A stretch of DNA of 64,000 bases from an uncultured Parachlamydiaceae bacterium (lineage in GTDB: Bacteria > Chlamydiota > Chlamydiia > Chlamydiales > Parachlamydiaceae): assembly GCA_963742415.1 (NCBI GenBank), contig CAVULX010000003.1, forward strand, positions 32,001 through 96,000, read 5' to 3'. Shown piece by piece: positions 19,137-38,593 of the stretch; within the stretch, counting starts at the first letter, position 1; every line of letters begins with the position of its first letter. The notes beneath the pieces were generated by a model that was given only the letters and a program-made list of their open reading frames with translations, was not told the DNA's origin and did no database searches. A program made the translations under genes and the position numbers.

Positions 19137-20294
19137 ATGAATCGAACAAAAAGGTCAGCGATTGCGTTTGTCATTCTTATGGGAATGGTGAGTCTCTTTG
19201 GTGACATGACTTATGAAGGCGCGCGGAGCATTACAGGTCAATATTTGGCTATTCTTGGTGCAAACGGAGCCATCGTTGGCGTTATAGCTGGATTTGGGGA
19301 GTTCATTGGTTACGGCTTCAGGCTTGTTTCTGGATATGTCAGTGATAAGACGGGAAAATACTGGCCGATCACGTTCATTGGGTACACGATTAACCTTTTA
19401 GCTGTTCCCCTTTTAGCTCTAGCGGGCAATTGGCCTGTAGCTGCTGCTTTAATCATTATTGAACGATTCGGGAAAGCTGTCCGCTCCCCAGCCAAAGACG
19501 CGATGCTTTCATATGCGACTAAGGAAGTGGGACGAGGGTGGGGATTTGGCCTCCATGAAGCTATGGATCAAGCCGGAGCTATTATAGGCCCGTTAATGAT
19601 GAGTTGTGTTCTTTATTTTCATGGAACATATCAAGCAGGGTTTGCGCTTCTTTTAATTCCCGCTTTATGCGCCTTAGCCGTATTAACGTGCGCGAGAATT
19701 TCTTACCCTAGTCCGGAAAAATTGGAGATTGCGCAGCCCAAGTTGAGTGGAGAGCGTTTGAACAGGAAATATTGGCTTTATGTCATTGCAGTTTCATGTG
19801 TGGCGGCAGGTTATGTGGATTTTGCTTTGATTGCTTTTCATTTAAAAAAAGGATCGCTTATTTCAGATGCTTGGATATCTATCATTTTTTCTATTTCCAT
19901 GGGAGCAGCAGGGGTAGCAGCTCTAGTTTTTGGAAAGCTTTATGATCGGTGGGGTTTTTCCGTTTTAATTTTTGCGACAGCTCTTGCATCCTTATTCGCA
20001 CTATTGGTATTTATTGATGGATTTTATTTCGCGTTAGCAGGAATGATTTTGTGGGGTATGGGGCTGGGAACTCAAGAGTCGATCATGCGCGCCTTTGTGG
20101 CTGATCTTGTCCAGATGAATAAGAGAGCCACTGCTTATGGAATTTTGAATATCTGGTTTGGAATTTTCTGGTTTGTAGGAAGCGCTTTGATGGGTTTTTT
20201 ATATGATATTTCGGTGACCTATTTAATCATTTTTTCCATGAGCATCCAGCTCTGTTCCATTCCTCTCCTTTTTGCGGTGAAGCATTCAGAATGA
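19137..20294 (+). CDS. MFS transporter
   Basis: SLFGDMTYEG, SGYVSDKTG, ERFGKAVRSPAKDA, GKLYDRWG; ~12 TM helices. Confidence 0.9.
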   Translation: MNRTKRSAIAFVILMGMVSLFGDMTYEGARSITGQYLAILGANGAIVGVIAGFGEFIGYGFRLVSGYVSDKTGKYWPITFIGYTINLLAVPLLALAGNWPVAAALIIIERFGKAVRSPAKDAMLSYATKEVGRGWGFGLHEAMDQAGAIIGPLMMSCVLYFHGTYQAGFALLLIPALCALAVLTCARISYPSPEKLEIAQPKLSGERLNRKYWLYVIAVSCVAAGYVDFALIAFHLKKGSLISDAWISIIFSISMGAAGVAALVFGKLYDRWGFSVLIFATALASLFALLVFIDGFYFALAGMILWGMGLGTQESIMRAFVADLVQMNKRATAYGILNIWFGIFWFVGSALMGFLYDISVTYLIIFSMSIQLCSIPLLFAVKHSE

Positions 20295-20461: not shown

Positions 20462-21742
20462 ATGATCTTTGAATCATATAGTAGGGGAATAACTAATAGC
20501 CCCTTTGACATTGTTGGTGAAAGCGAATGGGGATTTAGTAGCAATTTTCATGATGTTGAGACTGTTGAAACCGGATTTATGCCAACAGACAATCTTTCAA
20601 CCGGAGAAAATGGTATTGACGAAATGTATGATGAGCCTCTTTCAATGGACCTAGTTGGAAAAATTGATCTGTTTAATCCATGTGTGGGTAATGACACTCA
20701 AAATTTCCCCTTTATAACGTTTGAAGGGTTAGGTAATTTTTTAAAATCACCATTTCAAGAAAATGCCCAAGAAGCCCTAGAACAAAATTCCTGCACCAGC
20801 AATACAGAAAACACACCCGAAGTTTCAAAAAAACGTACAAGAAAACCTTCTTCTGGTAAAAAAGAAACTCTCAACACCTCAAAAAAACGTAAAAAGGACC
20901 CTTATTCTTCTACTGAATATGGTAAAAGTTATCGAGAAGCCCAGAAAAAATATAATGAACATCTTGAAGAAAAAGTAACTGATTTGTTTAAAACTTTTAA
21001 AGATCTGTTGAAACAAATGAAAGCCAAGTCTCAGAATTCTCTACAGCCACCCGATCAAGACATGCTTCAGAAATCTTTTAATGAGCTTCGGGAATCTTTA
21101 CGGCCTCTAGATTATTCAAGTTGGAAGAATAAAAATAATGTAATTCCTTTTTCTGAATTTGCTAAATCTAAGTCAAATTTAAATCGTTCTTCATACTATA
21201 ACGATATTCGCGATAAATATAATAGTTACAAAATCTTATTAATAAATAAATTATTTAAAAAAATTAATCAAGGCCGTGCGTTATTGGAATTGACAGAGAT
21301 TATTGAGGAACCTGCTGTCTCTTTTTATGAATTTAGACAATCTATCAAGAACAAAGACCATTTAATAAGCAAATCTCAAACAGAAAGCCTCTCACAAAAT
21401 TCAAATCAAGAAAATCAAAAAATTTTTCTTGAAGGCTATAATATTAAAGCAATCGGCTACCTTTTGAAGGATAACCGCTTACTTGTAAAAAAGGATTCTG
21501 AGGCATGCATGATAGAGGCAAAATCATTAAAAGAATATTATATCAAGATCCGTCAACAACTTGTGAAAGATAAGATTCTCATTCTCGAAGAAAAAAGATA
21601 TAAATTTACAAAGGATTATATCTTCAGGACTCCCACATTGGCCGCCTCGGCAATTCTTGGAACGGCTGTTAATGGGAAAAGATATTGGAAAAATGAGTCA
21701 GGGCAATCTATTACAAAAGTCGAATCGAATAAATCGGTTTGA
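20462..21742 (+). CDS. Array member A1: acidic N-terminus + NLS + bZIP-like helical module + C-terminal DUF4357-like domain
   Basis: C-terminal LLVKKDSEA...YKFTKDYIFRTPTLAASAILGTAVNGKRYWKNESG; KKRTRK and KKRKK. Confidence 0.75.
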   Translation: MIFESYSRGITNSPFDIVGESEWGFSSNFHDVETVETGFMPTDNLSTGENGIDEMYDEPLSMDLVGKIDLFNPCVGNDTQNFPFITFEGLGNFLKSPFQENAQEALEQNSCTSNTENTPEVSKKRTRKPSSGKKETLNTSKKRKKDPYSSTEYGKSYREAQKKYNEHLEEKVTDLFKTFKDLLKQMKAKSQNSLQPPDQDMLQKSFNELRESLRPLDYSSWKNKNNVIPFSEFAKSKSNLNRSSYYNDIRDKYNSYKILLINKLFKKINQGRALLELTEIIEEPAVSFYEFRQSIKNKDHLISKSQTESLSQNSNQENQKIFLEGYNIKAIGYLLKDNRLLVKKDSEACMIEAKSLKEYYIKIRQQLVKDKILILEEKRYKFTKDYIFRTPTLAASAILGTAVNGKRYWKNESGQSITKVESNKSV

Positions 21743-21859
21743 TAAAAAACATCTTGATAATCTTAAATAGTGCTCAAAGAGAGTTGCGAATATTGAACAT
21801 GAAAGTCTTTGAATCAGTCTAAAACTAGATTAACCAATCATAAATATCTAAGGAGATCT

Positions 21860-23104
21860 ATGTACTCGGAAACAACTTTGAATAATGGAACTGCTTTTTT
21901 TAATATCCCCTTTGACTTTGCTTCTGAAAAGGGTACCATTGGTAGTTTTTATGTTGAAGAAACTATTGAAACTGGATGTATGCCAACAGGCGATCTTCCA
22001 ACTAGAGAAAATGATATTTTGTTTGATGATCCTCTTTCAATGGGCCTAGTTGAAAAAATTAATCTTTTTAATCCATTTGTGAGTAATGACTCTCAGAATT
22101 CCCCCTCTGTAACGTCAGAAGCATTAGATGATTTTTTAAGTGTATCATCTCAAGACAATGCCCAAGAAGTCCTAGAACAAAATTCCTGTATTAGCAATAA
22201 AGAAAACACCCCCGCAGTTTCAAAAAAACGTAAAAGAAAACATTCTTCAAAAGAAACTTCCTATGTCTCAAAACTACCTAAAACGGACTCTGTTTCTATT
22301 GAATATATGAAAAATTATCGAGAAGCCCAAAGAAATTATAATAAATATCTTGAAAAAAGAGTAGATGATCTATTTAAAACTTTTATAGATATGTGGGAAC
22401 AAATAAAAGCTAAGTATCAGAATTCCCTACAGCCTTTCGATCAAGACGTGCTTCAGAAATTTAAAGAGCTTCGAAAGTCTTTACGGCCTCTAAATTTTTC
22501 AAGTTGGAAGAAAAAAAATAATGTACTCTCTTTTCCTGTATCTAAGTCAAATTCAAAGCGTTCTACATTCTATAGAGAGATTCACGAAAAATATGATAAT
22601 TACAAAATCTCATTAATCAATAAATTATTTATAAAAATTAATGAAGGCCATGCGTTATTGGGGTGGCCAAAGCTTATCGAGGAACCTGTTATTTCTTTTT
22701 CTGATTATAGGCAATTTAACGATAACAATGACTATCCAACGAATCAAGAAAATCAAAGATATATTCTTAAGCGCAAAAGGAAAATTATTGCAATCGCCTA
22801 CCTTATGAGTGATAACCGCATGTGTGTAATGAAGGATTCTAAAGCACGCATGTCGGAGGCAAAATCCTTGAAAAATGGTTATTCCGAACTCCGTCAGCAA
22901 CTCGTGGAAGGTGGGATTCTAATTCCTGATGATAAGAGTCCAATTTCCGAAGAAAAACTATATATATTTACAACGAATTATACCTTCAAATCTGCCACAT
23001 CGGCTGCCGTGGCAATTCTTGGAAGAACTGTAAGTGGGAAAAATCTTTGGAAAAATGAGTCAGGGCAATCTATTACAAAAGTCGAATCGAATAAATGGGT
23101 TTGA
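21860..23104 (+). CDS. Array member A2 (same architecture as A1)
   Basis: AAGGAG RBS before ATG 21860; KKRKRK; FKSATSAAVAILGRTVSGKNLWKNESG. Confidence 0.75.
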   Translation: MYSETTLNNGTAFFNIPFDFASEKGTIGSFYVEETIETGCMPTGDLPTRENDILFDDPLSMGLVEKINLFNPFVSNDSQNSPSVTSEALDDFLSVSSQDNAQEVLEQNSCISNKENTPAVSKKRKRKHSSKETSYVSKLPKTDSVSIEYMKNYREAQRNYNKYLEKRVDDLFKTFIDMWEQIKAKYQNSLQPFDQDVLQKFKELRKSLRPLNFSSWKKKNNVLSFPVSKSNSKRSTFYREIHEKYDNYKISLINKLFIKINEGHALLGWPKLIEEPVISFSDYRQFNDNNDYPTNQENQRYILKRKRKIIAIAYLMSDNRMCVMKDSKARMSEAKSLKNGYSELRQQLVEGGILIPDDKSPISEEKLYIFTTNYTFKSATSAAVAILGRTVSGKNLWKNESGQSITKVESNKWV

Positions 23105-23151
23105 TAAACATTATGTAAATATACTTTAATATCAATAATTCAAGGAGATAT

Positions 23152-24012
23152 ATGACCATCAATTTACGTCCGACTGAGCCTAATATCTCAAGTATCAATT
23201 TTTGGGATGAAGGAGAAATTGAATCTGGATTGGAGTCAAGAAAAACTTTAAACGGAGGAAATGATGTTGACGAAATATTTAAGAGTGATGATTTATCTCT
23301 TGACCTGATTGAAAAAGTTGATTTTTTTAATCCATGTGGGGATCAGTATCTTCAAAAATTACCCTCTTATGCATCTGAAGATTCAGTGAATTTTGTTGAA
23401 AAAAAAACCGAGATGAATGAAGTGACTTATATAGTCGATTTTGTGGATAGGTTTGGGAAGAATATTGAATTTTCTTCCGGAGTTGATGATTTAGATGATA
23501 TAAAACTTCCTCCATCAAAAAAACGTAAAATTGGCCCATTAAATGACCAGAATATTTTTCAGACCAGACATGATGTCTCAAGTTCAGCAGAGGAAATTGG
23601 CGAAAAATATACTATAAAAGAGAATCAAATTTATGCTATCGGCTACCCTTTGGGCGGAAAGAGCATGCGTGTAAAAGAAGGCTCTACGGCGAGCCTGAGT
23701 GAGGTACCATTGTTAAATAAATGTCATGTCATATGCCGCAAAAGTCTTGTGCAAAATGGTGTTCTAACTGTAACTACCGATGGTACAAAATATAGATTTA
23801 CAAGAGATTTCGACTTCAAGTCATCCACAGGTGCTGCCTCGGTCATCCGCGGAAAAAATTCATGTGGGACTGTATGTTGGAAAAATGAGGCGGGGCTATG
23901 CATCAATAAAAAGAAATATCAGAGGACTAAGAAAGGTCAAATGAATTCTTCAAAAATACTTGCGAAAGGAACCGCGATCAACCGGTCTATAAGTGAGAGC
24001 CTGAATTTTTAA
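23152..24012 (+). CDS. Array member B1: acidic N-terminus + NLS + DUF4357-like domain
   Basis: PPSKKRKIGP; YRFTRDFDFKSSTGAASVIRGKNSCGTVCWKNEAG. Confidence 0.75.
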   Translation: MTINLRPTEPNISSINFWDEGEIESGLESRKTLNGGNDVDEIFKSDDLSLDLIEKVDFFNPCGDQYLQKLPSYASEDSVNFVEKKTEMNEVTYIVDFVDRFGKNIEFSSGVDDLDDIKLPPSKKRKIGPLNDQNIFQTRHDVSSSAEEIGEKYTIKENQIYAIGYPLGGKSMRVKEGSTASLSEVPLLNKCHVICRKSLVQNGVLTVTTDGTKYRFTRDFDFKSSTGAASVIRGKNSCGTVCWKNEAGLCINKKKYQRTKKGQMNSSKILAKGTAINRSISESLNF

Positions 24013-24185
24013 AATAACTAAAAAGGAAAGCAAACTGTCTTTATAACAAATTTTTATTTGATAAAAAACATCTTGATAATCTTTAATAGTGCTCAAAGAG
24101 AGTTGCGAATATTAAATATTGAACATGAAAGTCTTTGAATCAGCCTAAAACTAGATTAACAAATCATAAATATTTAAGGAGATCT

Positions 24186-25451
24186 ATGTCCTTTGGTATA
24201 AATTTGAATAACGGAACAACTTTTTGTAATAGCCCCTCCTTTGACTTTGTACCTGGAAGCGAACGGGGATTCAGTTGCAATTTTTATAATGATGAAACTA
24301 TTGAAAATGGATTTATGCCAACAGACAATCTTCCAACTGAAAAAAATGGTCTTTTGTTTAATGAGCCTCTCTCAATGGACCTAGATGTAAATCTTCGCAA
24401 TCCATGTGTGAGTAATGACACTCAAAGTTTTCCCTTTACAACGTTTGAAGAATTAGGTAATGATTTAAAATCGTCATCTCCAGACAATGCCCAAGAAGTA
24501 CTAGAACAAAATTCCGGTATCAGCACAGAAAACACCCCCGCATTTTCAAAAAAACGTACAAGAAATCCTTCTATTGATACAAAAGAAACTCTCAATCCCT
24601 CCAAAAAACCTAGAAAGGATCCTTATTCTTCCATTAAATATATGCAAAATTATCGAGAAGCCCAGAAAAACTATGAAGAATATCTTAAGGCAAGAGTAAA
24701 TGACTTGTTTAAAACTTTTTTAGTTCTGTTGAAACAAATGAAAGCCTATCATAAGAATTCCCTACAGTCTTTCGATCAAGACGTGCATCAGAAATTTAAC
24801 AACCTTCAAAAGTCTTTACGGCCTCTAAATTTTTCAAGTTGGAAGAAAAAAAATAATATACTCCCTTTTTCTGAAGTTGCTAAAACCCAGTCAGATTTAA
24901 AGAGTTCTACATACTATAGAGAGATTCACAATAAATATGATAATTACAAAATCTTATTAATCGATAAATTATTTAAAAAAATTAATGAAGGCCGTGCGTT
25001 ATTGGGGTTGCCAGAGGTTATTGAGGAACCCGCCGTTTATTTTTATGAATTTAGACAAAACGGCAATAACAAAGACTATCCAATAAGCAGATCTTACACA
25101 CAAAATACAAATCAAGAAAATCAAAAATATTTCCTTAAGAAAAAAAACAAAATTATAGCAACCGCCTCCCTTTTGCGTGGTAACCGCTTACGTGTAAAAA
25201 AAGATTCTGAGGCATATATGACGGAGGCAAAATCATCAAAAAAATGTTATATCAATATCCGTCAAAAACTTGTGAATGATGGGATTCTAATTCCCAAAAA
25301 TGAAAGATATATATTTACAAAGGATTATATTTTCAAGTCTGCCTCATTTGCTGCCTCGGCAATTCTTGGAGCATCTGTAGCTGGGAAAAGTCTTTGGAAA
25401 AATGAATCAGGGCAAAGTATTAAACAAGTCGAGTCGAATAAACAAGTTTGA
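24186..25451 (+). CDS. Array member A3
   Basis: AAGGAG RBS before ATG 24186; KKRTR, KKPRK; FKSASFAASAILGASVAGKSLWKNESG. Confidence 0.75.
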   Translation: MSFGINLNNGTTFCNSPSFDFVPGSERGFSCNFYNDETIENGFMPTDNLPTEKNGLLFNEPLSMDLDVNLRNPCVSNDTQSFPFTTFEELGNDLKSSSPDNAQEVLEQNSGISTENTPAFSKKRTRNPSIDTKETLNPSKKPRKDPYSSIKYMQNYREAQKNYEEYLKARVNDLFKTFLVLLKQMKAYHKNSLQSFDQDVHQKFNNLQKSLRPLNFSSWKKKNNILPFSEVAKTQSDLKSSTYYREIHNKYDNYKILLIDKLFKKINEGRALLGLPEVIEEPAVYFYEFRQNGNNKDYPISRSYTQNTNQENQKYFLKKKNKIIATASLLRGNRLRVKKDSEAYMTEAKSSKKCYINIRQKLVNDGILIPKNERYIFTKDYIFKSASFAASAILGASVAGKSLWKNESGQSIKQVESNKQV

Positions 25452-25497
25452 TAACCGTTTGTAAATACATTCTAATATCAATAATTCAAGGAGATCT

Positions 25498-25892
25498 ATG
25501 TTCATTAATTCATATTCGGCTGACTCTAATACCTTAAACGGCAATTTTTGGGATGTAGTAAAAATTGAATCTGGATCGGAGTCAAGAAACATTTTAAACG
25601 AAAGAAATTATGTTAATGAAATATTTAATAGTGATTTATCATTAAGGAGGCAAAATCGATAGATAAATGTTATGCCAAGTGGCGTAAAAAACTTGTGAAA
25701 AATGATGTTCTAACTGCAACTGAGGATGGAAAAAAATATAAATTTACCGCGGATTTCATCTTCCGGTCACCCTCACATGCTGCCTCGGTCATCTGCGGAA
25801 AAAATACAAGCGGGCCTGGAAATTGGAAAAATGAGGCGGGAAAAAGTATTAGGCAATTAATTGAAACGAAAAAAAAATTCAGAGGACTATGA
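25498..25892 (+). pseudogene. Array member B2: internally deleted, frameshifted
   Basis: B-type N-terminus (MFINSYSADSNTLNGNFWD...) is fused out of frame at ~25645 to a DUF4357 half (EAKSIDKCYAK...GPGNWKNEAG); ~660 bp missing relative to B3. Confidence 0.8.
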
Positions 25893-26084
25893 AAGGTAAG
25901 CAAATTGTTTTTTTATAATAAATTCGTATTTGCTAAAAAAACATTTTATACATTAAAGAGTAGATTTTTGTTTAATTAATTTTGTATAAATGTTAGGTTA
26001 TAAAAAATTAAATAGAATTCTACTATGAAGCATTAAATGTGCTATAGAATTTGATTAACTAATAACAATAATTTAAGGAATTAT

Positions 26085-26939
26085 ATGTCTACTCAACCTG
26101 TTTATTTTAATCCAATAAATTACCCTCTTACAAATTATTCAGGACTTGAAAGCCAACAAAAATCAGGTTTATGTTTTCAGGATTGCGATGTTCATAATGG
26201 ATCAGTAAGTGAATTGGAACCGAATAGCAATTATTCAAATGTTAATAAAAATTCATTTAACACAAAAAGTTTGGAAAAACTGGCTTATAAAACTCATCAG
26301 GTTATTGTTGGGGCTAATATATCTTTAGATTCTTCTGAACCCAAATATTTAGGAGCTTTTGACGAAACTACTGCCAATTCTCAAAGTGTCCTTAAGCAAA
26401 CTTCCCTCAACGACGATACAGATTGCCTCAGAGAGTCAAATAAACGTAAAAGAGAATCTTCAGCTCAAGCTCGAATTTCTCAAAAGCGTCCAAAGGGTTG
26501 GATTTTCCATACCGCAAATCCTGCAGTCAAGAAAAACTTAAAAAAGCCTTCTAATTTTCAAGACGTAGGTGATGCCCCAAACTCAAAATCAGAATCGGAT
26601 GAATACACTCTTAGGCGTAAAGAGATTCTTGCGACAGGCCAGCTTTTAAAAGATAATTCCATGCTTGTAAAAAAAGGTTCTACGGCTTGCATAGAGACAG
26701 TAGCATCAATGCATAATGGATATTTAAGACTCCGCGAAAAACTTTTGAAAAAAAATATTCTAGGTCTCGATCCCGATAGTGAAAATAAAAATTATATATT
26801 TAAAGATGAATATATCTTTAGGACGCCCTCACTAGCTGCCTCGGTGATCTCTGGGGCAAATGCAAGTGGAAGTGACTATTGGAAAAATAGGTCGAACCAA
26901 AGCATTAAGGCCGTCGAATTGAAGAAAAAAAATAGCTAG
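26085..26939 (+). CDS. Array member C1: low-complexity N-terminus + NLS + DUF4357-like domain
   Basis: KRKRE; YIFKDEYIFRTPSLAASVISGANASGSDYWKN. Confidence 0.75.
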   Translation: MSTQPVYFNPINYPLTNYSGLESQQKSGLCFQDCDVHNGSVSELEPNSNYSNVNKNSFNTKSLEKLAYKTHQVIVGANISLDSSEPKYLGAFDETTANSQSVLKQTSLNDDTDCLRESNKRKRESSAQARISQKRPKGWIFHTANPAVKKNLKKPSNFQDVGDAPNSKSESDEYTLRRKEILATGQLLKDNSMLVKKGSTACIETVASMHNGYLRLREKLLKKNILGLDPDSENKNYIFKDEYIFRTPSLAASVISGANASGSDYWKNRSNQSIKAVELKKKNS

Positions 26940-27019
26940 ACATTACTCGGCTATGAGCTTGAATGATTCGGGCATATTATAAAATTAGATTAACAAATCA
27001 TAAATATTTAAGGAGATCT

Positions 27020-28303
27020 ATGCTCCCTGGTACAACTTTGAATAGCGGAACAACTTTTTACAATAGCCCCGACTTTGTACCTGGAAGCGAATGGGGATTC
27101 GGTAGCAATTTTTGTGATGATGAAACTATTGAAACTGAATTTATGCTAACAAACAATCTTCTAACTGGAGAAAATGGTCTTGGCGAAAAGTTTAATGAGC
27201 ATCTTTCAATGGACCTAGTTGAAAAAATTGATCTGTTTAATCCATGTGTGGGTAATCACACTCAAAGTTTCCCCTTTACAACGTTTGAAGAATTAGGTAA
27301 TGATTTACAATCGTCACCTCAAGACAATGCCCAAGAAGTCCTAGAACAAAATTCCTGCACCAGCAATACAGAAAGCTCTCCCAAAGCTTCAAGAAAACGT
27401 AGAAGAAAACCTTCTATTGATACAAAAAAAACTCTCAATGCCTCAAAAAAACCTAAAAAGGACCGATATTTTGAATATAGAAAAAATTATCGAGAAGCCG
27501 AGAAAAATTATGATATATATCTTGAAGAAAGAGTAAAAAATTTGTTTAAAACTTTTATAGGACTGTGGGATCAAATGAAAGCCAAGCATCAGAATTCTCT
27601 ACAGCCTCCCGCTCAAGACATGCTTCAGAAATCTTTTAATGAGCTTCGGGAATCTTTACGGCCTCTAGATTTTTCAAGCTGGAAGATTAAAAATAATGTA
27701 CCTTCATTTACTGATTCTGCTAAAATTAAGTTAAATTTAAAAAATTCTACATACTATAAAGACATCCACGATAGATATAATAATTACAAAATCGTATTAA
27801 TTGATAATTTATTTAAAAAAATTAATGAAGGCCGTGCGTTATTGGGTTTGCCAGAGGTTATTGGGGTATCTACTGTTTCTTTTGATGAATTTAGGAAATA
27901 TATCAAAAATAAAGACTATCCCATAAGCAGTTCTCAAACACAGAGTCTCACACAAAGTTCAAATCAAGAAAATCAAAAATATATTCTTAAGGACAAGAAG
28001 AATATTAAAGCAATTGCTTACCTTTTGTGGGATAACAGCTTACTCGTAAAAAAGGATTCTGAGGCATGCATGATGGAGCCACAATCATTAAAGAAATGTT
28101 ATAGCAAGATCCGTCAAAAACTTGTGAAAGATATGGTTCTAATTCCCGAAAAAGGAAGATACATATTTACAAGTGACTATATCTTCAAGTCTCCCACATT
28201 TGCAGCCTCGGCGATCCTTGGATCATCTGTAAGTGGGAAAAAATATTGGAAAAATGAGTCAGGGCTAAGTATTGAACAAGTCGAATCAAAAAAATGGCTT
28301 TGA
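27020..28303 (+). CDS. Array member A4
   Basis: AAGGAG RBS before ATG 27020; RKRRRK, KKPKK; FKSPTFAASAILGSSVSGKKYWKNESG. Confidence 0.75.
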   Translation: MLPGTTLNSGTTFYNSPDFVPGSEWGFGSNFCDDETIETEFMLTNNLLTGENGLGEKFNEHLSMDLVEKIDLFNPCVGNHTQSFPFTTFEELGNDLQSSPQDNAQEVLEQNSCTSNTESSPKASRKRRRKPSIDTKKTLNASKKPKKDRYFEYRKNYREAEKNYDIYLEERVKNLFKTFIGLWDQMKAKHQNSLQPPAQDMLQKSFNELRESLRPLDFSSWKIKNNVPSFTDSAKIKLNLKNSTYYKDIHDRYNNYKIVLIDNLFKKINEGRALLGLPEVIGVSTVSFDEFRKYIKNKDYPISSSQTQSLTQSSNQENQKYILKDKKNIKAIAYLLWDNSLLVKKDSEACMMEPQSLKKCYSKIRQKLVKDMVLIPEKGRYIFTSDYIFKSPTFAASAILGSSVSGKKYWKNESGLSIEQVESKKWL

Positions 28304-28346
28304 CAAACTTTTGTGAACACCCTCTATCAATAATTCAAGGAGATAT

Positions 28347-29372
28347 ATGTCCATAGATGCACTGACTGACTCTAATACCTTAAGCTGCAGTTTTTGGGGT
28401 GAAGTAGAAATTGAATCTGAGTTAAGAGACATTTCAAATGAAGGAAATTATGTTAATAAAATATTTAATAATAATTTATCACTTGACCTGATTCAAAGAA
28501 TTGATTTTTTTAATCCATGTGCGGGGGAATATCTTCAAGACGTACCCTCTTTTACATCTGAAGATTCAGGAAATTTTGTAATGACATTTCAAGGAAAGCC
28601 ACCAGAAGTTCAAGAGCAAAATTCCTACGCCATCAGTACAAAAAAAACTCCTAATAACACGAAAAAACGTAAAATTGAGCCTTTATATTATCCTGATTGT
28701 GTAAAAAGACCTACGTATTGCGACCCGAACGTTTCTCTGTCAACTTTATTTTACAAGTATTATAGGCAGGAACCAAATGCTTGTTTTGATATCGAAGAAA
28801 TTCCTGAAGAGAAAGCTGAGATGAATTGTACAGATGAACCGACTTATATGGTCGGTTCTGAGGATAGGTTTGGGAAAATAATTGTACCTTCTTTCGGTGT
28901 TGATGATTTAGGTGATATAGAACATCCTGTCTCAAAAAAAAGTAAAATTGACCTTTTACATCATGCACAAAATGCTCAAAAAACTCTAAATGACCGGAAT
29001 ATTTTTCAGGCCATATGGGATGTCTCAAGTTCAGTAGCGGAAATTGGCGAAAAATATATTATAGAACATAAACAGATTTATGCTATCGGCTACCTTTTGA
29101 ACGATAACCGCATGCGCGTAAAAGCAGGTTCTACGGCATACCTGATGGAGGCAAAATCAATAGGTAAATGTTATGCAAGATGCCGTAATGAACTTATAAA
29201 AAGTGGAGTTCTAACTGTAACTGACGATGGTACAAAATATAGATTTACGGCAGATTTCGTCTTCAAGTCACCTTCGCGTGCTGCCTCGGTCATCCGCGGA
29301 ACAAATACAAGCGGGCCTGGATTTTGGAAAAATGAGGCGGGGAAAAGTATTAGGCAATTCAAAGGACTATGA
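28347..29372 (+). CDS. Array member B3
   Basis: KKRKIEP; YRFTADFVFKSPSRAASVIRGTNTSGPGFWKNEAG. Confidence 0.75.
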   Translation: MSIDALTDSNTLSCSFWGEVEIESELRDISNEGNYVNKIFNNNLSLDLIQRIDFFNPCAGEYLQDVPSFTSEDSGNFVMTFQGKPPEVQEQNSYAISTKKTPNNTKKRKIEPLYYPDCVKRPTYCDPNVSLSTLFYKYYRQEPNACFDIEEIPEEKAEMNCTDEPTYMVGSEDRFGKIIVPSFGVDDLGDIEHPVSKKSKIDLLHHAQNAQKTLNDRNIFQAIWDVSSSVAEIGEKYIIEHKQIYAIGYLLNDNRMRVKAGSTAYLMEAKSIGKCYARCRNELIKSGVLTVTDDGTKYRFTADFVFKSPSRAASVIRGTNTSGPGFWKNEAGKSIRQFKGL

Positions 29373-29425
29373 AAAGTTAAATCTAGTGAGGCATGCCAAT
29401 AAAGTTATTTGATAACAAATGTAGC

Positions 29426-29590
29426 TATACACAAACAACTTGAAAAATCGGTTTTAGGCTTAAGCGAAAGCTCTCGCGATTCGACTTCCGGAATCGACCC
29501 CATATTATAATATTGGGTCGATTCCGGAAGTCGAATCGCGAGAGCTTTCGCTTAAGCCTAAATTCCGATTTTTCAAGTCGTTTGGGTATA
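29426..29590. mobile_element. 165-bp near-perfect palindromic MITE (TATAC...GTATA ends)
   Basis: Self-complementary over almost its whole length; same termini as 38381-38459; absent from the paralogous site at ~23940. Confidence 0.8.
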
Positions 29591-29887
29591 ACATCGGCCC
29601 GACTATCAACTGTTACTTGAATTCTTCAAAAATACATGCGAAATTGAACCATGATCAACCTGTCAATAAGCGAGAGCCTTAATTTTTAAAATAATTAAAA
29701 AGGTAAGCAAATTGTTTTTTATAATAAACTTGTATTTGCTAAAAAAATTTTATTCATTAAAAAAGAGATTTTTGTTTAATTAATTTGGTAGAAATGTTAA
29801 GTTATAAAAATTTAAAAGAATTCTAATATGAAGTATTAAAAGTGTTATAAAATTAGATTAACTAATGCCAATAATTTAAGGAGATAT

Positions 29888-30676
29888 ATGTCTGTAAATC
29901 CAACCAATTTTAATTCAATAAATTATGATACTAGATACACTCATGCAAGATTTGAAAGTCAACAAGAACCAAGTTTAAGTTTTCAGGGTGGCGGCATACC
30001 TAATGAATCCGTATGTGAATTGGAATTGAATAACAACCTTTCAAATGAAAACGAAGATATTAAAAATTTATTTAACACAACTGATTTAGAAGAACTGGCT
30101 AAAGAAATTGATCGGTTTAATCCATATAATTTTGAATGTGAGACTGATATATCTTTAAATTTAAACTTTTTTCAATCCAAAGAATTAGGTTCTTTTGACG
30201 AAACTTCTACCGATTCCCGACAAGTCCCAGAACAAAATCCCTCCATCGACGATACAGATCGTCCCAGAGCGTCAAAAAAACGTAAAAGAGAACCTTCAAT
30301 TCAAGGCGAAAGTGATACTCCAAATTCAAAATCAAAATTGCAAGAATATATTCTTGAACGTAAAGGTATTCTTGCAAAAGGCCAGCTTTTGACAGATGAT
30401 TCCATGCTTGTAAAAAAAGGTTCTACGGCTTGCATGGAGACGGTACCATCAATAGCTAGAGGATATTTAAAACTCCGCAAAGAACTTTTGAATAAAAAAA
30501 TTCTAGTTCCCGATAGTGGAAATAAAAAATATATATTTACAAATGATTATACCTTCGGGAACTGGACAATAGCTGCCTCGGTGATCTCTGGGGTATGTGT
30601 AAGTGGAAGTAAATTTTGGAAAAATTCGTCGATCCAAAGCATTAAGGCCATCAAATTAAAGAGAAAAAATAGCTAG
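29888..30676 (+). CDS. Array member C2
   Basis: KKRKREP; YIFTNDYTFGNWTIAASVISGVCVSGSKFWKN. Confidence 0.75.
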   Translation: MSVNPTNFNSINYDTRYTHARFESQQEPSLSFQGGGIPNESVCELELNNNLSNENEDIKNLFNTTDLEELAKEIDRFNPYNFECETDISLNLNFFQSKELGSFDETSTDSRQVPEQNPSIDDTDRPRASKKRKREPSIQGESDTPNSKSKLQEYILERKGILAKGQLLTDDSMLVKKGSTACMETVPSIARGYLKLRKELLNKKILVPDSGNKKYIFTNDYTFGNWTIAASVISGVCVSGSKFWKNSSIQSIKAIKLKRKNS

Positions 30677-30765
30677 ACATTACTCGGCTATAAGATTAAA
30701 TGATTCTAAGTAGTGGGGCATTTTATAAAATTAGATTGACTAATACCAATAATTTAAGGAGATAT

Positions 30766-31545
30766 ATGTCTTTTGATTCAATCTATTGTAATTCAACAAA
30801 TTATTATAATTATAGTAACAATTATTCAGGACTTGGGAGTCAACATGAATCGGAATCGAATAACAACCTTTCAAATGAAAACGAAGCTATTGAAGAATTA
30901 TTTGAGACAAATTATTCAGAAGAACTGATTAAAAAAATTGATAGCTTTAATCCATTTAAAGTTGAATGTGAGACTGATATATCTTTAAATTTAAACTTTT
31001 TTGAATTCAAAGATTTAGGTTCTTTTGACGAAACTTCTACCGATTCCCGACAAGTCCCAGAGCAAAATCTCTCCATCGACGACACAGATCGTCCCAGAGC
31101 GCCAAAAAAACGTAAAAGAGAACCTTCAATTCAAGGCGAAAGTGATACTCCAAATTCAAAATCAAAACCGAAAGAATATACTCTTGATTCTAAAGGTATT
31201 CTTGCAAAAGGCCAGCATTTGGAAGGTAATCTCATGCGTGTAAAAAAAGGTTCTACGGCGTGTAAGGAGATGGCAAAATCAATTAGTGAAAATTATTCCA
31301 CACTCCGCAATCAACTTTTGGACAATAAAATTCTAGTTCTCGATAGTCTAAAAGAAAAATATGAATTTACAAGCGCTTATACCTTCCAGTCCCCCACACA
31401 AGCTGCCTCGGTGATCCGTGGAGCAAATACAAATGGGAGAACTTCTTGGAAGAATACTACCTCGAAACAAAATCTTAATGATGTCGCATGGAATAAAAAA
31501 AGAGCTAGATTTTTCGAGACTATGGAGTTGAATGATTCTAAGTAG
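30766..31545 (+). CDS. Array member C3
   Basis: AAGGAG RBS before ATG 30766; KKRKREP; YEFTSAYTFQSPTQAASVIRGANTNGRTSWKN. Confidence 0.75.
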   Translation: MSFDSIYCNSTNYYNYSNNYSGLGSQHESESNNNLSNENEAIEELFETNYSEELIKKIDSFNPFKVECETDISLNLNFFEFKDLGSFDETSTDSRQVPEQNLSIDDTDRPRAPKKRKREPSIQGESDTPNSKSKPKEYTLDSKGILAKGQHLEGNLMRVKKGSTACKEMAKSISENYSTLRNQLLDNKILVLDSLKEKYEFTSAYTFQSPTQAASVIRGANTNGRTSWKNTTSKQNLNDVAWNKKRARFFETMELNDSK

Positions 31546-32919: not shown

Positions 32920-33193
32920 GCGCCGCTCTTGATTAAAGGATATTTACATACACTCTGTCATATTTATTTTAAATGGACAATTCCCATTTTAGTGCTGTCA
33001 GTAAAAATACAAATGCGTATTTGCGGATTGATTTTGTCGCATAAAAATAGATCTGGAAACAATCATTTTGTCGATTTGCAGATTTTTTTTTGATTATATA
33101 AAACTATCTGCAAACCGACATTTTGTTTATTTGCAGATTGACTTTATATATAGAAAAAATGTATTCTATGCTCAAAGTATAGGAGAATTAAAA

Positions 33194-34627
33194 ATGAAAC
33201 CAGCCCAATTTATTGGCCGCGAAGCTGAAATGAGAAGGCTGAAAGGGCTTTTAAATAAAAAAAGTGCAAGCCTTATCGTGGTACGAGGCAGAAGGCGAAT
33301 TGGTAAAAGCAGGCTTTTGGCTGAATTTGGAAAGGAAATGAAAAGTTTTTTCTTTTCTGGAAATCCTCCAGTGCGCAAAACAACAGCTCAATCTCAACGC
33401 GATGTCTTTGCTCATCAGCTTGAAAGAGCGGGTATTCCTGGTGTTAAGCCAGATGATTGGGGCAATCTCTTTTGGCATCTCTCTAAGCATACTCAAAAAG
33501 GACGAATTCTTATTGTATTTGATGAAATTTCATGGATGGGAGGAAAAGATCCTCATTTCTTAGGACAGTTGAAAACTGCTTGGGATATGTATTTTAGCAA
33601 AAATCCACATTTAATTATTGCGCTTTGTGGTTCAATTTCTTCATGGATTGAAAAAAATATTCTAAGTAGCACAGGATTTCTTGGAAGAATTACGATTGAT
33701 CTTGTTCTTGAAGAGCTTCCCTTACATGTCCTGTAATGCTTTCTGGCATCCAAAAGAAAAACGTATTACAGCTTATGAAAAATTCAAACTTTTATCTGTA
33801 ACAGGAGGAGTTCCTCTCTATCTTGAACAAATTAGACCAAATCTTCCTGCAGAGCAAAATATTCAAGATCTTTGTTTTACTAAAGGTGGATTGCTTGTTC
33901 GAGAATTTGATGAGATATTTTCAGATCTTTTTTCTCGTAGTAAAGGGAGTCATAAAGAAATTGTTACTTGTCTTGCGAATGGTCCAAAAGAACTTGCTCA
34001 AATTTGTAAGGAATTGGAAAAAGCCAAGGGGGAATATTCAGCAAGTATTTGGATGAATTGGTAAAGGCAGGTTTTGTAAAAAGAGATTTTACATGGGATC
34101 TAAAAAATGGAAAAGAAGGAAAATTAAGTCGTTATCGTTTAAGTGATAATTATTTGCGCTTTTATTTAAAATATATTGCTCCAAATCGTGCCAAAATTGA
34201 AAAGGGGAATTTTCCGACTTCAATGCTTAACCATCTTCCTGGTTGGGAAGGTATTATGGGATTGCAATTTGAAAATCTTGTTGTTCATAACTTTAAAAGT
34301 CTCTGGAAGATGTTGAATATTTCTCCAGAAGAAGTAGTAATGGATGGACCATTTTTTCAAAACTCAACAACCAGACAACCTGGATGTCAAATCGATTATA
34401 TGATCCAAACACGTTTTCATAACCTATATTTATGCGAAATTAAATTTTCAAAAGCTCCTGTTGGGAAAAAAATAATCGAAGAAATGGAAGAAAAAAGAAA
34501 ACGTTTAAAAGTTCCTAGGCATTTTTCTATTAGACCTGTTCTAATTCATGTAAATGGTGTCGAAGACAGTGTTTTAGATGAGGGATACTTCGATAAGATA
34601 ATCGATTTTGGTCAACTTTTAGAGTAA
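33194..34627 (+). CDS. Archaeal-type AAA/ATPase_2 protein with DUF234-like PD-(D/E)xK tail; two apparent frameshifts (~33730, ~34020)
   Basis: FIGREAE, Walker A GRRRIGKS, Walker B IVFDEISW, GGVPLYL, QIDYMIQ..LCEIKF; three ORFs join into one. Confidence 0.85.
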
Positions 34628-34700: not shown

Positions 34701-35867
34701 TTAAAAGTTTTGGTTGAGAATTGGGGGAAGAACTTGGAGCAATTCATCCACGCGGCTATCCCAAGTATGGAACTTGCGCACTTTCTCTTTGGCGCGCTCT
34801 GCCATCCTTTTTCGCTCATCTTCATGAGATAAATAATATTCTACTGATTCGTTGACACGACTCCATTGTCCAGGCTTATAGAATACCATATCTTCCCCTT
34901 CGTTGAAATGTTCCCTAGCCCATATTGTGTCTGTCGTGATCATCATGCAGCCGCATGCGGGCCCCATAAAAAGCCTCTCATGAGTGCCGTTTTTAAAAAA
35001 GGGCATACTATTCAAGCAAATTTTACTCCGCCTCATGACCTCGATCCCCTCCTCAATGGGGATTGCCGGATGAACAATGACATTAGAGTTATCGGGAAAA
35101 TAGGAGGACCACCCTTTGACCGCGATGGGGGGGCGGAAGCATGCGCCGCCAAAAATATGAACGGTGGCATTTTTGATTGAACGGATGAGTTCGAGCCGGT
35201 CTGTCCCTTTGATATAGCTTCCGATATAATAAAGGAGTGAAGCGTAGTCGAGATCGGCAGGGTTTGCCTGCAATTCACTCATAGCCCTCTGCAGGGCTTC
35301 CCATTCAGTCGCTTTGGGATTTTCCCAAAATATTGAAAGGGCCAGCTCGATTGTTTTTCGTTGAAGATCGGAATATTTATTCCAAAACTTTTCTAACCCT
35401 TGCGGATCATAGCATGTGCCCAAATAGACAACATCATAGAGCTTCTGTTCTTCAGGAAGCTGTGTCAACTCAACTTCTACGCCATGGCCGAAAAAAAAAA
35501 CTTTCTTGAAGAGCATTTTTTTCAGTTCTTCACACTGCAAGTGATCCACGCAAGATATGAGGAGATTAGGGCGTTGCAAATAAGGAAAAAGGGGAGCGGG
35601 GGGATCTGTCAGGATGCTCCAAAAAGGGATTTTAAACTGTTTCCAAAGCCTCTCTATTTTTGTAAACTGAAAGGGCCAATAGAAAGAGCATAATAAATCT
35701 GGAAGCTGATTTTTTTGTGCTGAAGCAATAGCTACAGGATCTTCTTTTAGAGCATCTAAGAAACGGGTTTTGATCCCTTTTCGATTGAGGGCCTCACTAA
35801 ATTTTTTTGAAAAATGCCTTTTGGTGTCATAAAGATTATTGCCAAGCAAAATCCAAATGTTATCCAT
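34701..35867 (-). CDS. Glycosyltransferase (CgeB/Glyco_trans_1_2-like), paralogue 3
   Basis: YDVVYLG, SKICLNSMPFFKNGTHERLF...ACG, HTWDSR. Confidence 0.8.
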   Translation of the reverse strand: MDNIWILLGNNLYDTKRHFSKKFSEALNRKGIKTRFLDALKEDPVAIASAQKNQLPDLLCSFYWPFQFTKIERLWKQFKIPFWSILTDPPAPLFPYLQRPNLLISCVDHLQCEELKKMLFKKVFFFGHGVEVELTQLPEEQKLYDVVYLGTCYDPQGLEKFWNKYSDLQRKTIELALSIFWENPKATEWEALQRAMSELQANPADLDYASLLYYIGSYIKGTDRLELIRSIKNATVHIFGGACFRPPIAVKGWSSYFPDNSNVIVHPAIPIEEGIEVMRRSKICLNSMPFFKNGTHERLFMGPACGCMMITTDTIWAREHFNEGEDMVFYKPGQWSRVNESVEYYLSHEDERKRMAERAKEKVRKFHTWDSRVDELLQVLPPILNQNF

Positions 35868-37056
35868 TATTTTCGGCCTGTTGTTTCATTTGCTGAATAA
35901 ATGCGGGGATCTCCTCTAAAAGCTGTTCTGCCCGTTGATCCCAAGTATGGTGGAGGAGGACCTTTTCGTATCCACTGCGAACCAACTGCTGCCGCTCCGC
36001 TTCATGAGCCAAAAAATAATTGATTTTATCATTTACTTCATTCCATTTAAGGGTCTCGTAAAGCAGGAGTTCTTTCCCATTGATAAAATTTTCACGGACC
36101 CACAGATTGTCTGTGGTGATAGGAAGAGCGCCGCAGGCTAGGCTAAAGAAAATCCTTTCATGGGTACCATTCTTAAAAAAAGGCATGCTATTCAAGCAAA
36201 TCTTGCTTTGCTTGCAGATCTCCAGAATTTCCCAGTACGGGACTGCAGGATGCACGGTGACGTTGGGGCAATCGAATAAGGCTTGAGCCCATCCACTGAT
36301 GGGGTGTTCATCGCGCCAGCAAGTCCCTCCAAAAACATGGACGGAGGCATCTTTGATTGATCTGATTAACTCCAAACGATCGACTCCCCTCATGTAATTA
36401 TCGACATTCATATAAATTCTGATTTTTTCTTGCTCTGTAAAAGGGATTTTATACTGCAGCAATATATCATCGACAACTTTCCAAAAAGGGATGTCTCTTT
36501 GAGAAAGAGCGATTCTGGCTGCTTCTTCGAAGAGAACGAGCAGCTGAGGGATATATTTGCCTTGCCAAGCTTTTCTAAGGCCTTGAGGATCGTATGAGCT
36601 CCCGAAGAATACAACATCGTAGGGTCGTGGTTGATCTGGAGAGGCGAATAGTTCTTTTTCGATAGCATGTGGAAAGAAGAAGACATTTTTTCCCCCTTTT
36701 TGCTGCAAATAGTAGCAATCGAAACGATCGACGCATGAAATTAGAGAATAGGATGGTTTGACGAGATTGGCATCATAGCAAGCAGGATCAACCAAGATGG
36801 AGAGGTAGGGAATTTTTCTTTTTTCCCAAAAAAATGTTCCATCCTCATTGGGAACGACACGATTGAAAGAGCAGCACAAATCGGGAGGTTTTGTATACTC
36901 TTTGCTTTTGGAATTTGGGAGCAATCCCTCTTTCCTGAAGTCGATAACTCTCGTTTTAACTCCATGTCGCTTTAAGGCATCAGCCAGCTTTAAGCTAAAA
37001 TGTTTTTTTGATTCGTAGAGATTATAGTTATAGATAATCCAAACTTCGTTGAGCAT
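35860..37056 (-). CDS. Glycosyltransferase (CgeB/Glyco_trans_1_2-like), paralogue 2
   Basis: YDVVFFG, SKICLNSMPFFKNGTHERIF...ACG, HTWDQR. Confidence 0.8.
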   Translation of the reverse strand: MLNEVWIIYNYNLYESKKHFSLKLADALKRHGVKTRVIDFRKEGLLPNSKSKEYTKPPDLCCSFNRVVPNEDGTFFWEKRKIPYLSILVDPACYDANLVKPSYSLISCVDRFDCYYLQQKGGKNVFFFPHAIEKELFASPDQPRPYDVVFFGSSYDPQGLRKAWQGKYIPQLLVLFEEAARIALSQRDIPFWKVVDDILLQYKIPFTEQEKIRIYMNVDNYMRGVDRLELIRSIKDASVHVFGGTCWRDEHPISGWAQALFDCPNVTVHPAVPYWEILEICKQSKICLNSMPFFKNGTHERIFFSLACGALPITTDNLWVRENFINGKELLLYETLKWNEVNDKINYFLAHEAERQQLVRSGYEKVLLHHTWDQRAEQLLEEIPAFIQQMKQQAENNG

Positions 37057-37069
37057 CTGGCATCCGATT

Positions 37070-38245
37070 TTATGTAGGAAGTCTGTTAAGGATATCTGGC
37101 ATTTCTTCCAACATTTCATCGACCCGATTATTCCAGGTGTGATTTTCCATCACCAAAGCACGTCCCCGTTTAGCGATATCGACCCGTCTGGATTCATCAT
37201 GTAATAAAGCATTAACTTTTTCATTTATAAGCCCTCTTTGATTCATACTGTAGTAGATGACATGTTTTTCCTCTTCGAAGAACTCTCTAAAATAATTATT
37301 ATCTGTCGTCGCAGGGACAGCTCCGCACGCGAGACCTGTGAACACCCTTTCGTGTGTGCCGTTCTTAAAGAAAGGCATGCTATTTAAGCAGATTTTGCTT
37401 TGTTTCAATATTTTGAGCGATTCAGCAAAAGGGACTGAAGGGTGAAGTAAGACGTTTTTTTGAGAACCAAGATAGTGCTTCCAACTGAGAACGCCTACAG
37501 CCATATCGGTTGATAGCTCCCCAAAAACATGAATGGGAGCTTCTGTGATAGAATTGATTAACGCCACCCGATCCTTGCCCCGAGTATAGTTGTCGAGGTA
37601 ATAAAAAAGGGCTGCAAAATCTACTGCAGTTGGATCAAGCTTGGAGGCATTCCAGGCATTTAAAAGAGCATCCACAAGAGAAGTAGAATTATCGGAAAAG
37701 ACGATTTCAATAGCATCGTCTAGAGCTTTGTTGATCTCTGCAGGATATTGTTGCTGCCATGAGGCGCGCAAGCTCTCATAGTCATAGCAAGTGCCTAGAA
37801 AAACCACATCATAAATCCTTTTTTCATTTCCCGGATTGAGCTCCGGCTCCACGGCATGGGGGCAAAAAAAGGCATTTTTAAATTGATAGGAATGGAGCTG
37901 GATTAAATCAGAACGGTCTACACAGGAAAGGATTGTATAGGGACTGCGGGTGAGGTGGACAGAATAAAGGACGGGGTCTACTAAAATTGACCAATGGGGA
38001 ACCTCTAGAAAATCGCAAAGGAACTTTGTTTCTGAAATAGGGAGAAGGGCGTTGAAGGAACAAGTTAAATCGGGGTTAAAATGTCGGATGGTGTTCATCG
38101 TGTCGGAAGCGATTGAAGCTTCATTGACATCGATAACCAGTGTTTCGATCCCTTTTCGTTTCAAGGCATCTGCAAGTTTGCTGGTAAAATAACGTTTGGA
38201 TTCATAAAGATTGTAATTGACGATCAAGCATATTCTATTCAGCAT
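37070..38245 (-). CDS. Glycosyltransferase (CgeB/Glyco_trans_1_2-like), paralogue 1
   Basis: YDVVFLG, SKICLNSMPFFKNGTHERVF...ACG, HTWNNR. Confidence 0.8.
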   Translation of the reverse strand: MLNRICLIVNYNLYESKRYFTSKLADALKRKGIETLVIDVNEASIASDTMNTIRHFNPDLTCSFNALLPISETKFLCDFLEVPHWSILVDPVLYSVHLTRSPYTILSCVDRSDLIQLHSYQFKNAFFCPHAVEPELNPGNEKRIYDVVFLGTCYDYESLRASWQQQYPAEINKALDDAIEIVFSDNSTSLVDALLNAWNASKLDPTAVDFAALFYYLDNYTRGKDRVALINSITEAPIHVFGELSTDMAVGVLSWKHYLGSQKNVLLHPSVPFAESLKILKQSKICLNSMPFFKNGTHERVFTGLACGAVPATTDNNYFREFFEEEKHVIYYSMNQRGLINEKVNALLHDESRRVDIAKRGRALVMENHTWNNRVDEMLEEMPDILNRLPT

Positions 38246-38374
38246 AAGCCCCCTATTAGGTTGCTTCACTTGAAAAGCATGAATACCCTCTTATTGGCTA
38301 TCCTAGCTTTAATTTTATAATTTTCGACTTTATCTTTAAAATTAAAATTTTAGTATATGGAAGAATTATTATTT

Positions 38375-38593
38375 ATAATGTATACCCAAACGACTTGAAA
38401 AATCGGAATTTAGGCTTAAGCGAAAGCCTAAAACTGATTTTTCAAGTCGTTTGGGTATAAGTTGAAAATTTCTGCGTAATCAAGTTTAAAAACCTCTGTG
38501 TCCTCTATGATCTCTGTGGTTGAATTTTAACAAACCACGGAGATCACAGAGAACACAGAGAGACAATAAATTTAATTTTTTGCAACTTACGTT
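38375..38593. mobile_element. MITE-like element, left copy (TIR GTAAGTTG...CAACTTAC, internal CTCTGTG/CACAGAG 9-bp units)
   Basis: Inverted copy of 39788-39923; supplies the TAA stop codon of the adjacent gene. Confidence 0.7.
38381..38459. mobile_element. Short MITE with TA target-site duplication, nested in the end of another element
   Basis: TA-[TACCCAAACGACTTGAAAAATC...GATTTTTCAAGTCGTTTGGGTA]-TA; the empty site ATAATGTAAGTTG is seen in the sister copy at 39911-39923 (reverse complement). Confidence 0.85.

Follow-up and report, generated by a model that had tools for sequence, protein, structure and literature searches.

A two-helix PLxxxW module probably shared by a DUF4357 gene array and an orphan bZIP protein of a chlamydial genome

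Basic leucine zipper (bZIP) domains are characteristic of transcription factors in eukaryotes. Pathogens have their own bZIP mimics and nucleomodulins, among them the viral proteins Zta, HBZ and Meq as well as the TAL effectors, NUE and AnkA. Zta is of particular relevance here, as it possesses a short zipper that is propped by a C-terminal tail folding back. A literature search, which covered few subscription journals, returned no bZIP protein described in chlamydiae and no bacterial bZIP effector. The present analysis concerns a 64,000-nucleotide stretch of DNA from an uncultured Parachlamydiaceae bacterium (hereafter the window), which corresponds to positions 32001-96000 of contig C3 in a 2.69-Mb genome of four contigs with a GC content of 0.417. 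The window carries an array of genes whose products end in the domain DUF4357, four of which (A1 to A4) are longer than the remainder, and a separate gene (Z) that encodes an orphan bZIP protein. A first-pass annotation of this DNA had proposed that A1 to A4 and Z contain one and the same unnamed bZIP-like module.

The proteins of the window resemble Zta, HBZ, Meq, the TAL effectors, NUE and AnkA by analogy only, in the combination of a host-type transcription-factor domain with a putative import signal, and they have no sequence relation to any of them. By this analogy, the fold-back tail of Zta would provide a parallel to the PLxxxW turn and second helix described below. To our knowledge, two units in one chain linked by a PLxxxW turn are found in no bZIP family. 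The reading that we favor, with a probability of roughly 55%, is that A1 to A4 and Z share a homologous, lineage-specific module of two long helices and a PLxxxW turn, whose likely role is pairing or the binding of host bZIP proteins, the proteins themselves being predicted to be secreted and directed to the host nucleus.

The module in the array proteins and Z

A1 (20462..21742, 426 aa), A2 (21809..23104, an open reading frame (ORF) of 431 aa from TTG), A3 (24135..25451, ORF of 438 aa) and A4 (26963..28303, ORF of 446 aa) are all encoded on the plus strand and are composed of a disordered N-terminus, a basic cluster, the module and a DUF4357 C-terminal domain. Their modules occupy 20846-21292, 22232-22666, 24567-25010 and 27404-27850, respectively, and the span 20930-27830 of the first-pass annotation begins in helix 1 of A1 and closes in helix 2 of A4 (27740-27835). 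Each module carries the motif YREAQ(K/R)xY..(Y/H)L...V..LFKTF, of which A4 has the variant YREAEK, followed by SLRPL(D/N)(Y/F)SSWKxKNN and then by Y..I..(K/R)Y..YKI.LI..LF. Z (38587..39750, minus strand, 387 aa) consists of four basic-region helix units arranged in two repeats (repeat 1 at 39106-39453 and repeat 2 at 38590-38913). All of the motifs quoted in the first-pass annotation for A1 to A4 and Z were recovered from the translations in the order given there. The A modules are 61-69% identical to each other, while the two Z repeats are 41% identical to each other. The module is present twice in tandem in Z, which lacks DUF4357, and once upstream of DUF4357 in each of A1 to A4, which bears out the modular use that had been proposed.

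Comparison of A1 with Z by BLASTP gave an expectation value (E) of 5e-5 over 113 columns that begin at the basic cluster, take in helix 1 and end at the PLxxxW motif, and a second segment aligned helix 1 of the A protein with unit 1b of Z (E 0.014). A2 and Z share 12 of 24 residues in an ungapped alignment (E 0.005). The profile-profile comparison that had been suggested as a check proved significant, as hhalign aligned the four A modules with the two Z repeats at E 1.6e-4 over 96 columns with a score of 32.3. None of 300 column-shuffled Z alignments scored as high (mean 11.8, standard deviation 2.25, maximum 20.5), and the reversed-alignment control scored 11.6. When hidden Markov model (HMM) profiles were searched against residue-shuffled decoys, the A profile placed Z repeat 1 first of 2,002 sequences at 20.9 bits and the Z profile placed the A modules at ranks 1-4 of 2,004 with 17-22 bits, the top decoy reaching 12.4 bits in either direction. 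A MAFFT alignment of the six modules was collinear, with nine invariant columns (F, Q, P, L, W, K, Y, Y and L). The profiles were also run against 11,845 six-frame ORFs of the own genome. The top non-self match of the A profile was Z and that of the Z profile was A3, with A4, A1 and A2 at ranks 4, 7 and 14. On these sequence comparisons, the helix-PLxxxW-helix modules of the A-type proteins and Z are probably homologous, in agreement with the first-pass annotation.

Several results weigh against the favored reading at this level. The hhalign probability of the A-Z comparison was only 50-64%, Z repeat 2 alone reached 7.6 bits (rank 14 of 2,002), and in the genome-wide search the A profile matched full-length Z at E 0.095 and the Z profile matched the full-length A proteins at 0.11-2.9 after the composition correction of HMMER, with bias scores of 10-25 bits. 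In addition, matches to PARP2 and to influenza HA2, described below, indicate that E values of about 0.01 can arise by chance with such sequences. In a rival reading there is no common ancestry, and the modules are convergent K/N/E/Y-rich amphipathic helices from an AT-rich region together with a chance PL..W motif; the corrected E of about 0.1, an hhalign probability as low as 50%, the chance match of a PARP2 construct at E 0.009 and the loss of helical periodicity in the residue-shuffled decoys would all fit such convergence. We nevertheless consider convergence quite improbable. It would have to account for three elements in the same order over 96 columns, for a score out of reach of the column-shuffled and reversed alignments, for ungapped stretches with 10-12 identities per 21-24 residues between the A helices and Z unit 1b, and for reciprocal best non-self matches among real ORFs, natural helical proteins included.

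The homology is restricted in extent. The two loci had been linked as one family, and this holds for the module. The profile of the array N-termini gave no match to Z, and the whole-protein array profile matched Z weakly (E 0.052). Because the N-terminal profile misses Z and the whole-protein comparison is weak, the term family is valid, by these comparisons, for the module alone and not for the whole proteins.

Alignment of individual units, anchored on the Arg of YRE or its counterpart, further defined the organization of the module. The 12 units (1a, 1b, 2a and 2b of Z, four A helices 1 and four A helices 2) align over 32 columns with zero gaps, with an invariant Leu at +17 from the Arg and a Tyr at +6 in 11 of the 12. 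Helix 1 and helix 2 of A3 match each other at E 9e-4, and helix 2 of A3 matches Z unit 1b at E 6e-4 with 10 of 21 residues identical, both E values being generous since the pieces were preselected. Judged from the ungapped alignment, the second A helix is a further copy of the helix 1 unit, a relation that the first-pass annotation did not contain, and each module is a unit, a PLxxxW turn and a second unit. In A1, the helix 1 unit lies at 20915-21010 (plus strand), with the YRE Arg at residue 158 and Leu at +10, +17 and +24, and the helix 2 unit, a degenerate second copy of it, at 21182-21277 (plus strand). The A copies have an extra helical stretch of about 30 residues ahead of the PLxxxW turn.

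AlphaFold models of the two types of module display the same order of secondary structure. The model of Z repeat 1, built from a six-row alignment, contains helices at residues 3-49, 51-57, 62-69 and 81-114 (predicted local distance difference test score (pLDDT) 81.7, predicted template modeling score 0.66). That of A3 contains helices at 167-207, 215-227, 233-239, 245-251 and 257-289 (pLDDT about 60-78), the first of which is a single 41-residue helix with a pLDDT of about 67-74. Foldseek and VIA-align searches with both models returned only generic long-helix and bundle matches for the helical parts, which does not help the favored reading.

A likeness of the A module to human PARP2 was considered and rejected. 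The stretch LQP..QD.LQK.F.ELR.SLRPLD.SSWK (e.g. 21050-21133) resembles the end of the PARP2 helical domain and the start of its catalytic domain, and SLKPLIYEDWKVK of Z also fits this PARP2-like motif of the A modules. A delta-HD construct of PARP2 was matched at E 0.009, with LRPLD..S included in the match, and natural PARP2 at about 0.25. The match was judged to be due to chance because the artificial junction of the construct supplies part of the score.

Searches for relatives of the module and of Z were negative outside this genome. A word-indexed search of 5.8 billion proteins and a phmmer search of 1.84 billion representatives each found Z alone, none of 60 related genomes contained a relative of Z, and a metagenome pattern scan for Z gave 94 pattern matches with none confirmed. 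For the A module, a search of proteins of 234-746 aa found the four own proteins alone, none of the 60 related genomes had a relative, and pattern scans of genome contigs (206 matches) and metagenomes (596 matches) yielded no confirmed case. The search of Chlamydiae genomes that had been suggested was run with a six-module profile on 401 genomes of the phylum, own genome included. It matched the six own modules and a single foreign bZIP domain (protein L009; E 2.7e-4) and nothing else, the module not being found in the 400 other genomes. NCBIfam has no family for A1, Z or the short array members B1 and C1. Within the collections searched, the A-type genes and Z are lineage-specific and known from a single genome.

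Relation of the units to bZIP domains

Like eukaryotic bZIP factors, Z passes the Pfam cut-offs for bZIP_2 (PF07716; 47.7 bits against a cut-off of 22.3) and bZIP_1 (PF00170; 41.8 against 27.6). The matches comprise three stretches, which correspond to units 1a, 1b and 2a, and single stretches in the genome search scored 29.3 (unit 2a), 21.4 (unit 1b) and 19.5 bits (unit 1a). The same three units have Asn at -8 from the Arg (N-x7-R) ahead of the Leu heptads, with Lys at this place in 2b. Leu is found at +17 in all four units and at +10 in 1b, 2a and 2b, with Arg at +10 in 1a. By Pfam thresholds, Z is a bona fide bZIP protein. A language-model atlas placed Z nearest to clusters of eukaryotic bZIP_2 families with a score of 0.8, which is a lead only, and a profile search of the PDB with the Z repeats matched CREB and Jun only at E values of 0.23-0.7. 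Unlike the genes of eukaryotic factors, Z and the A-type genes are bacterial, and their zippers comprise two to three heptads and end at Pro.

The array helices present a less clear case. Helix 1 of the A proteins, predicted as one long helix, retains the eukaryotic spacing R-x9-L-x6-L-x6-L/M, and the a-positions in between are occupied by V, F and M/I. Three of the four copies gave matches to bZIP_2 of 16.0 (A4), 13.7 (A3) and 13.3 bits (A1), scores that are all below the threshold of 22.3 bits; the E values of the three were 0.013, 0.069 and 0.094. The YRE Arg falls on profile column 20 in each of the three matches, a column that it shares with the Arg of Z unit 1b. At -8, the site of the bZIP Asn, A1 to A4 have S, S, S and Y, which confirms the earlier observation that the invariant Asn is replaced in the array copies.

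Among the nearest known counterparts are bZIP-containing hypothetical proteins of other chlamydiae. In a bZIP_2 survey of the 401 genomes, 7 had a match at E <=1e-3 and 5, own genome included, exceeded the cut-off. Four foreign proteins (L009, L010, L012 and L014) resemble the proteins of the window in possessing a disordered N-terminus and a basic cluster followed by a bZIP unit. L012 comes from the family to which this genome belongs; it contains two units and matches Z at E 8e-5, and a PLxxxW element was sought in this protein and not found. L009, named 'hypothetical protein' in a Parachlamydiales metagenome-assembled genome, resembles Z in having no relatives in the 5.8-billion protein collection. 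BLASTP of A4 against this protein gave E 7e-4 in an alignment of 110 columns that places YRE, Leu and RV..L in register. Comparison by hhalign of the four A helix-1 regions with the four foreign proteins gave P 0.0034, and that of the Z repeats with the same proteins gave 4.9e-5. What sets the four foreign proteins apart is that their zippers are long and canonical and that they lack a PLxxxW element, and DUF4357 does not occur in them either.

A number of findings stand against a bZIP origin of the array helices. No A copy attains the Pfam bZIP cut-off, the Pfam scan gave no bZIP match for A2, and other families such as TipAS, DUF1031 and DUF1820 score equally well or better at the sub-threshold level of the A copies. 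The Asn, Ala-Ala and Ser/Cys that eukaryotic factors have in the basic region are missing from A helix 1, and a Tyr precedes its Arg. Profile searches of the PDB with the A module returned PARP2 rather than bZIP, and the 12 units likewise failed to retrieve a bZIP, matching fragments of influenza HA2; the protein-language-model atlas gave nothing usable for the A module. A PDB profile search with the nine array proteins returned nothing at E <=1. The bZIP derivation proposed in the first-pass annotation stands for Z, with its scores above the Pfam cut-offs, and is tempered for the array helices, whose case is one of constant register at sub-threshold scores of 13-16 bits. On balance, descent of the A units from bZIP appears somewhat favored. 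Canonical bZIP-type DNA contact by these units is unlikely, and the description of the array copies as shuffled DNA-binding modules was not upheld, helix 1 being without the Asn, Ala-Ala and Ser/Cys.

The DUF4357 domain and the setting of the proteins

DUF4357 (PF14267) was recognized in the eight array proteins scanned at E 5.8e-9 to 2e-18, seven of them above the curated cut-off of 38.4 bits and C2 at 36.2. All nine intact array copies match the Pfam model at the C-terminus, and the genome search placed DUF4357 over the cut-off at all 10 array places, the broken copy included, and at one place elsewhere. The domain comprises roughly 110 aa; in the A3 model (residues 331-437) it is strand-rich with a pLDDT of about 80-89, down to 58 near residues 361-370. 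As a side observation, and as the sole non-helical hint from the structure searches, residues 323-438 of A3 weakly match the C-terminal DNA-binding domain of the methyltransferase CcrM (6pbd_B) with a Z-score of 6.6 and a root-mean-square deviation of 2.6 over 71 residues, values within the noise range of the tool. The C-terminal approximately 115 residues of A1, B1 and C1 match the C-terminal ends of the PADLOC candidate defense models PDC-S14 (E 1.3e-25), DUF3780 and PDC-S57. In contrast to those proteins, however, the N-terminal approximately 180-230 residues are replaced here by disorder, a basic cluster and, in A1 to A4, the bZIP-like module. Pfam, PADLOC and NCBIfam scans of the array proteins detected no nuclease, ATPase or other enzymatic domain. 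The sole DUF4357 gene outside the array is a 295-aa ORF on contig C2 (252366-253250, minus strand; 80.1 bits), the N-terminal half of which looks GIY-YIG-like by eye. This gene is a possible donor of the C-terminal domain of the array.

DUF4357 is otherwise known from the ends of nuclease-type candidate defense proteins, a point against the reading that we favor, and an intrabacterial role is possible for this reason. According to two papers (PMC4619093, PMC11090510), the domain is borne by GmrSD, GIY-YIG, T5orf172 and McrB-type restriction proteins. In this principal rival, the module would be homologous and yet be a mere helical scaffold or oligomerization piece in the array proteins, which would stay unsecreted and act within the bacterium in DUF4357-based nucleic-acid binding or defense, with basic clusters that bind nucleic acid instead of directing import. 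The PADLOC matches, the restriction proteins of the two papers, the 295-aa ORF with the same C-terminal domain and the loss of bZIP DNA-contact residues from the A helices all lend themselves to such a role. The defense models, on the other hand, are matched in the C-terminal part only and no enzymatic domain was found; the module is preceded by 165 residues that are predicted to be disordered; the genes are orphans of low GC content; the module is common to Z, a protein of eukaryotic bZIP type; and ten tandem, fast-diverging copies better suit gene families of host interaction. We regard the intrabacterial role as unlikely, although less so than either chance resemblance or gene decay.

The composition and context of the genes are consistent with secreted, nucleus-directed products. 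The nine intact array genes have a GC content of 0.33-0.37, Z of 0.326 and the DUF4357 piece of the broken copy of 0.39, against 0.42-0.48 in neighboring genes. Residues 1-165 of A3 are predicted to be disordered (pLDDT <50). Basic clusters occur in all array proteins and Z. Z and 7 of the 9 intact array ORFs conform to a strict KKRK/KRKR-type pattern, compared with 75 of 1,659 long ORFs genome-wide (4.5%), the clusters of A3 and A4 being a variant form. Genes for TLC nucleotide transporters (four) and for the FHIPEP export gate (two) are present in the genome, a content shared with obligate intracellular chlamydiae. From these genes, and from the Parachlamydiales label on a protein of a genome of the same order, we read the organism as a chlamydia of environmental type with an obligately intracellular life. 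Z and the A-type proteins are likely to be lineage-specific effectors, probably secreted and directed to the nucleus.

Across A1 to A4, the ratio of nonsynonymous to synonymous substitution rates (dN/dS) is about 0.99 in the module and N-terminus, 0.78 in the C-terminal domain and 0.40 in the PLxxxW stretch. A ratio near 1 is also expected under relaxed constraint, which detracts from the reading as fast-evolving effectors and, together with the array copy that is already broken and the lack of relatives in other genomes, might suggest that Z and the A-type genes are orphan frames in decay or without function, whose module has no present role. This is very improbable. Simulated neutral substitution at the observed 9.6% per lineage introduced 7.4-8.3 stops per gene (P of no stop <=0.0007), while the A1 to A4 frames of 426-446 codons are all open; the low ratio of the PLxxxW stretch, the intermediate one of the C-terminal domain and the three Pfam-recognizable basic regions kept in Z also speak against decay. 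Because the neutral simulation yields 7.4-8.3 stops per gene, the frames are held open by selection while their sequence evolves fast.

A mechanism in line with the favored reading can be outlined. An ancestral chlamydial bZIP gene would have been duplicated internally and then joined to a DUF4357 domain of bacterial origin. Type III secretion would deliver the products to the host cell, and import would bring them into its nucleus, where Z may bind DNA or pair with host bZIP proteins. The A proteins may use a degenerate zipper for pairing and not for DNA contact, with DUF4357 providing nucleic-acid contact, and the short zippers would be propped by the PLxxxW turn and second unit. A bolder and doubtful version holds that an amoeba-associated chlamydia captured a eukaryotic bZIP, turned it by duplication into paired basic-region helices on a single chain with a novel PLxxxW turn as their clasp, and joined a degenerate pair to a DNA-reader domain of bacterial restriction or defense origin, giving rise to an expanding and diversifying array of nucleus-targeted effectors that would rewire or jam host bZIP networks.

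Layout of the locus and significance

The array is co-directional, extends over window positions 20462-31545 and comprises nine intact genes and one broken copy. An MFS transporter gene (19137-20294) lies on one side of it and a gene resembling alcohol dehydrogenases on the other. A1 to A4 differ from the five short copies by an additional insert of about 150 residues. B1 (23152..24012, plus strand) is a short member without the module that carries KKRK, resembling a nuclear localization signal, and DUF4357; C1 (26085..26939, plus strand) is likewise short and without the module; the module is undetectable in B2 (28347..29372, plus strand); and C2 (29888..30676, plus strand) and C3 (30700..31545, plus strand) are short, C3 being the final gene of the array. 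What is left of the broken copy (25498..25892, plus strand) is an N-terminal part and a DUF4357 part, which lie in separate frames with stops between them. The former matches the N-terminal profile of the array at E 1.4e-6 and terminates at a stop, the latter scores 66.8 bits in the other frame, and the middle of the gene is absent.

The starts of several array genes deserve comment. The protein collection entry for A2 has 414 aa, and since this form is on record the true start of A2 is probably an ATG located 17 codons inside the TTG-initiated ORF; forms of 421 aa (A3) and 427 aa (A4) are also on record. A conserved stretch lies directly upstream of the probable ATGs of A2, A3, A4 and C3 (21809-21860, 24135-24186, 26963-27020 and 30700-30765) and reads K(I/T)RLTN..(Y/N)LRR(S/Y)M in frame. 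Because the collection holds the shorter forms, this stretch may be leader or regulatory sequence and not coding.

Z, 11 kb from the four A-type genes, sits 7 kb past the array, behind three tandem glycosyltransferase-like paralogues (34701-38269, minus strand; 388, 419 and 399 aa), the first of which matches Glyco_trans_1_2 at E 2.4e-25. At 33068-34627, a gene of ATPase_2/AAA_16 type appears to be broken over three overlapping frames (222, 127 and 192 aa) and is probably a frameshifted pseudogene.

For the organism, the 'hypothetical' A-type genes gain a testable domain map that consists of a disordered N-terminus, a basic cluster, a double zipper-like module and DUF4357. For the phylum, sporadic bZIP proteins are present in several environmental chlamydiae. 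Should Z and the A-type proteins indeed enter host nuclei, they would constitute a new class of bacterial transcription-factor mimics, and the array would be a natural series of bZIP-like domain degeneration and recombination with a prokaryotic DNA-reader domain.

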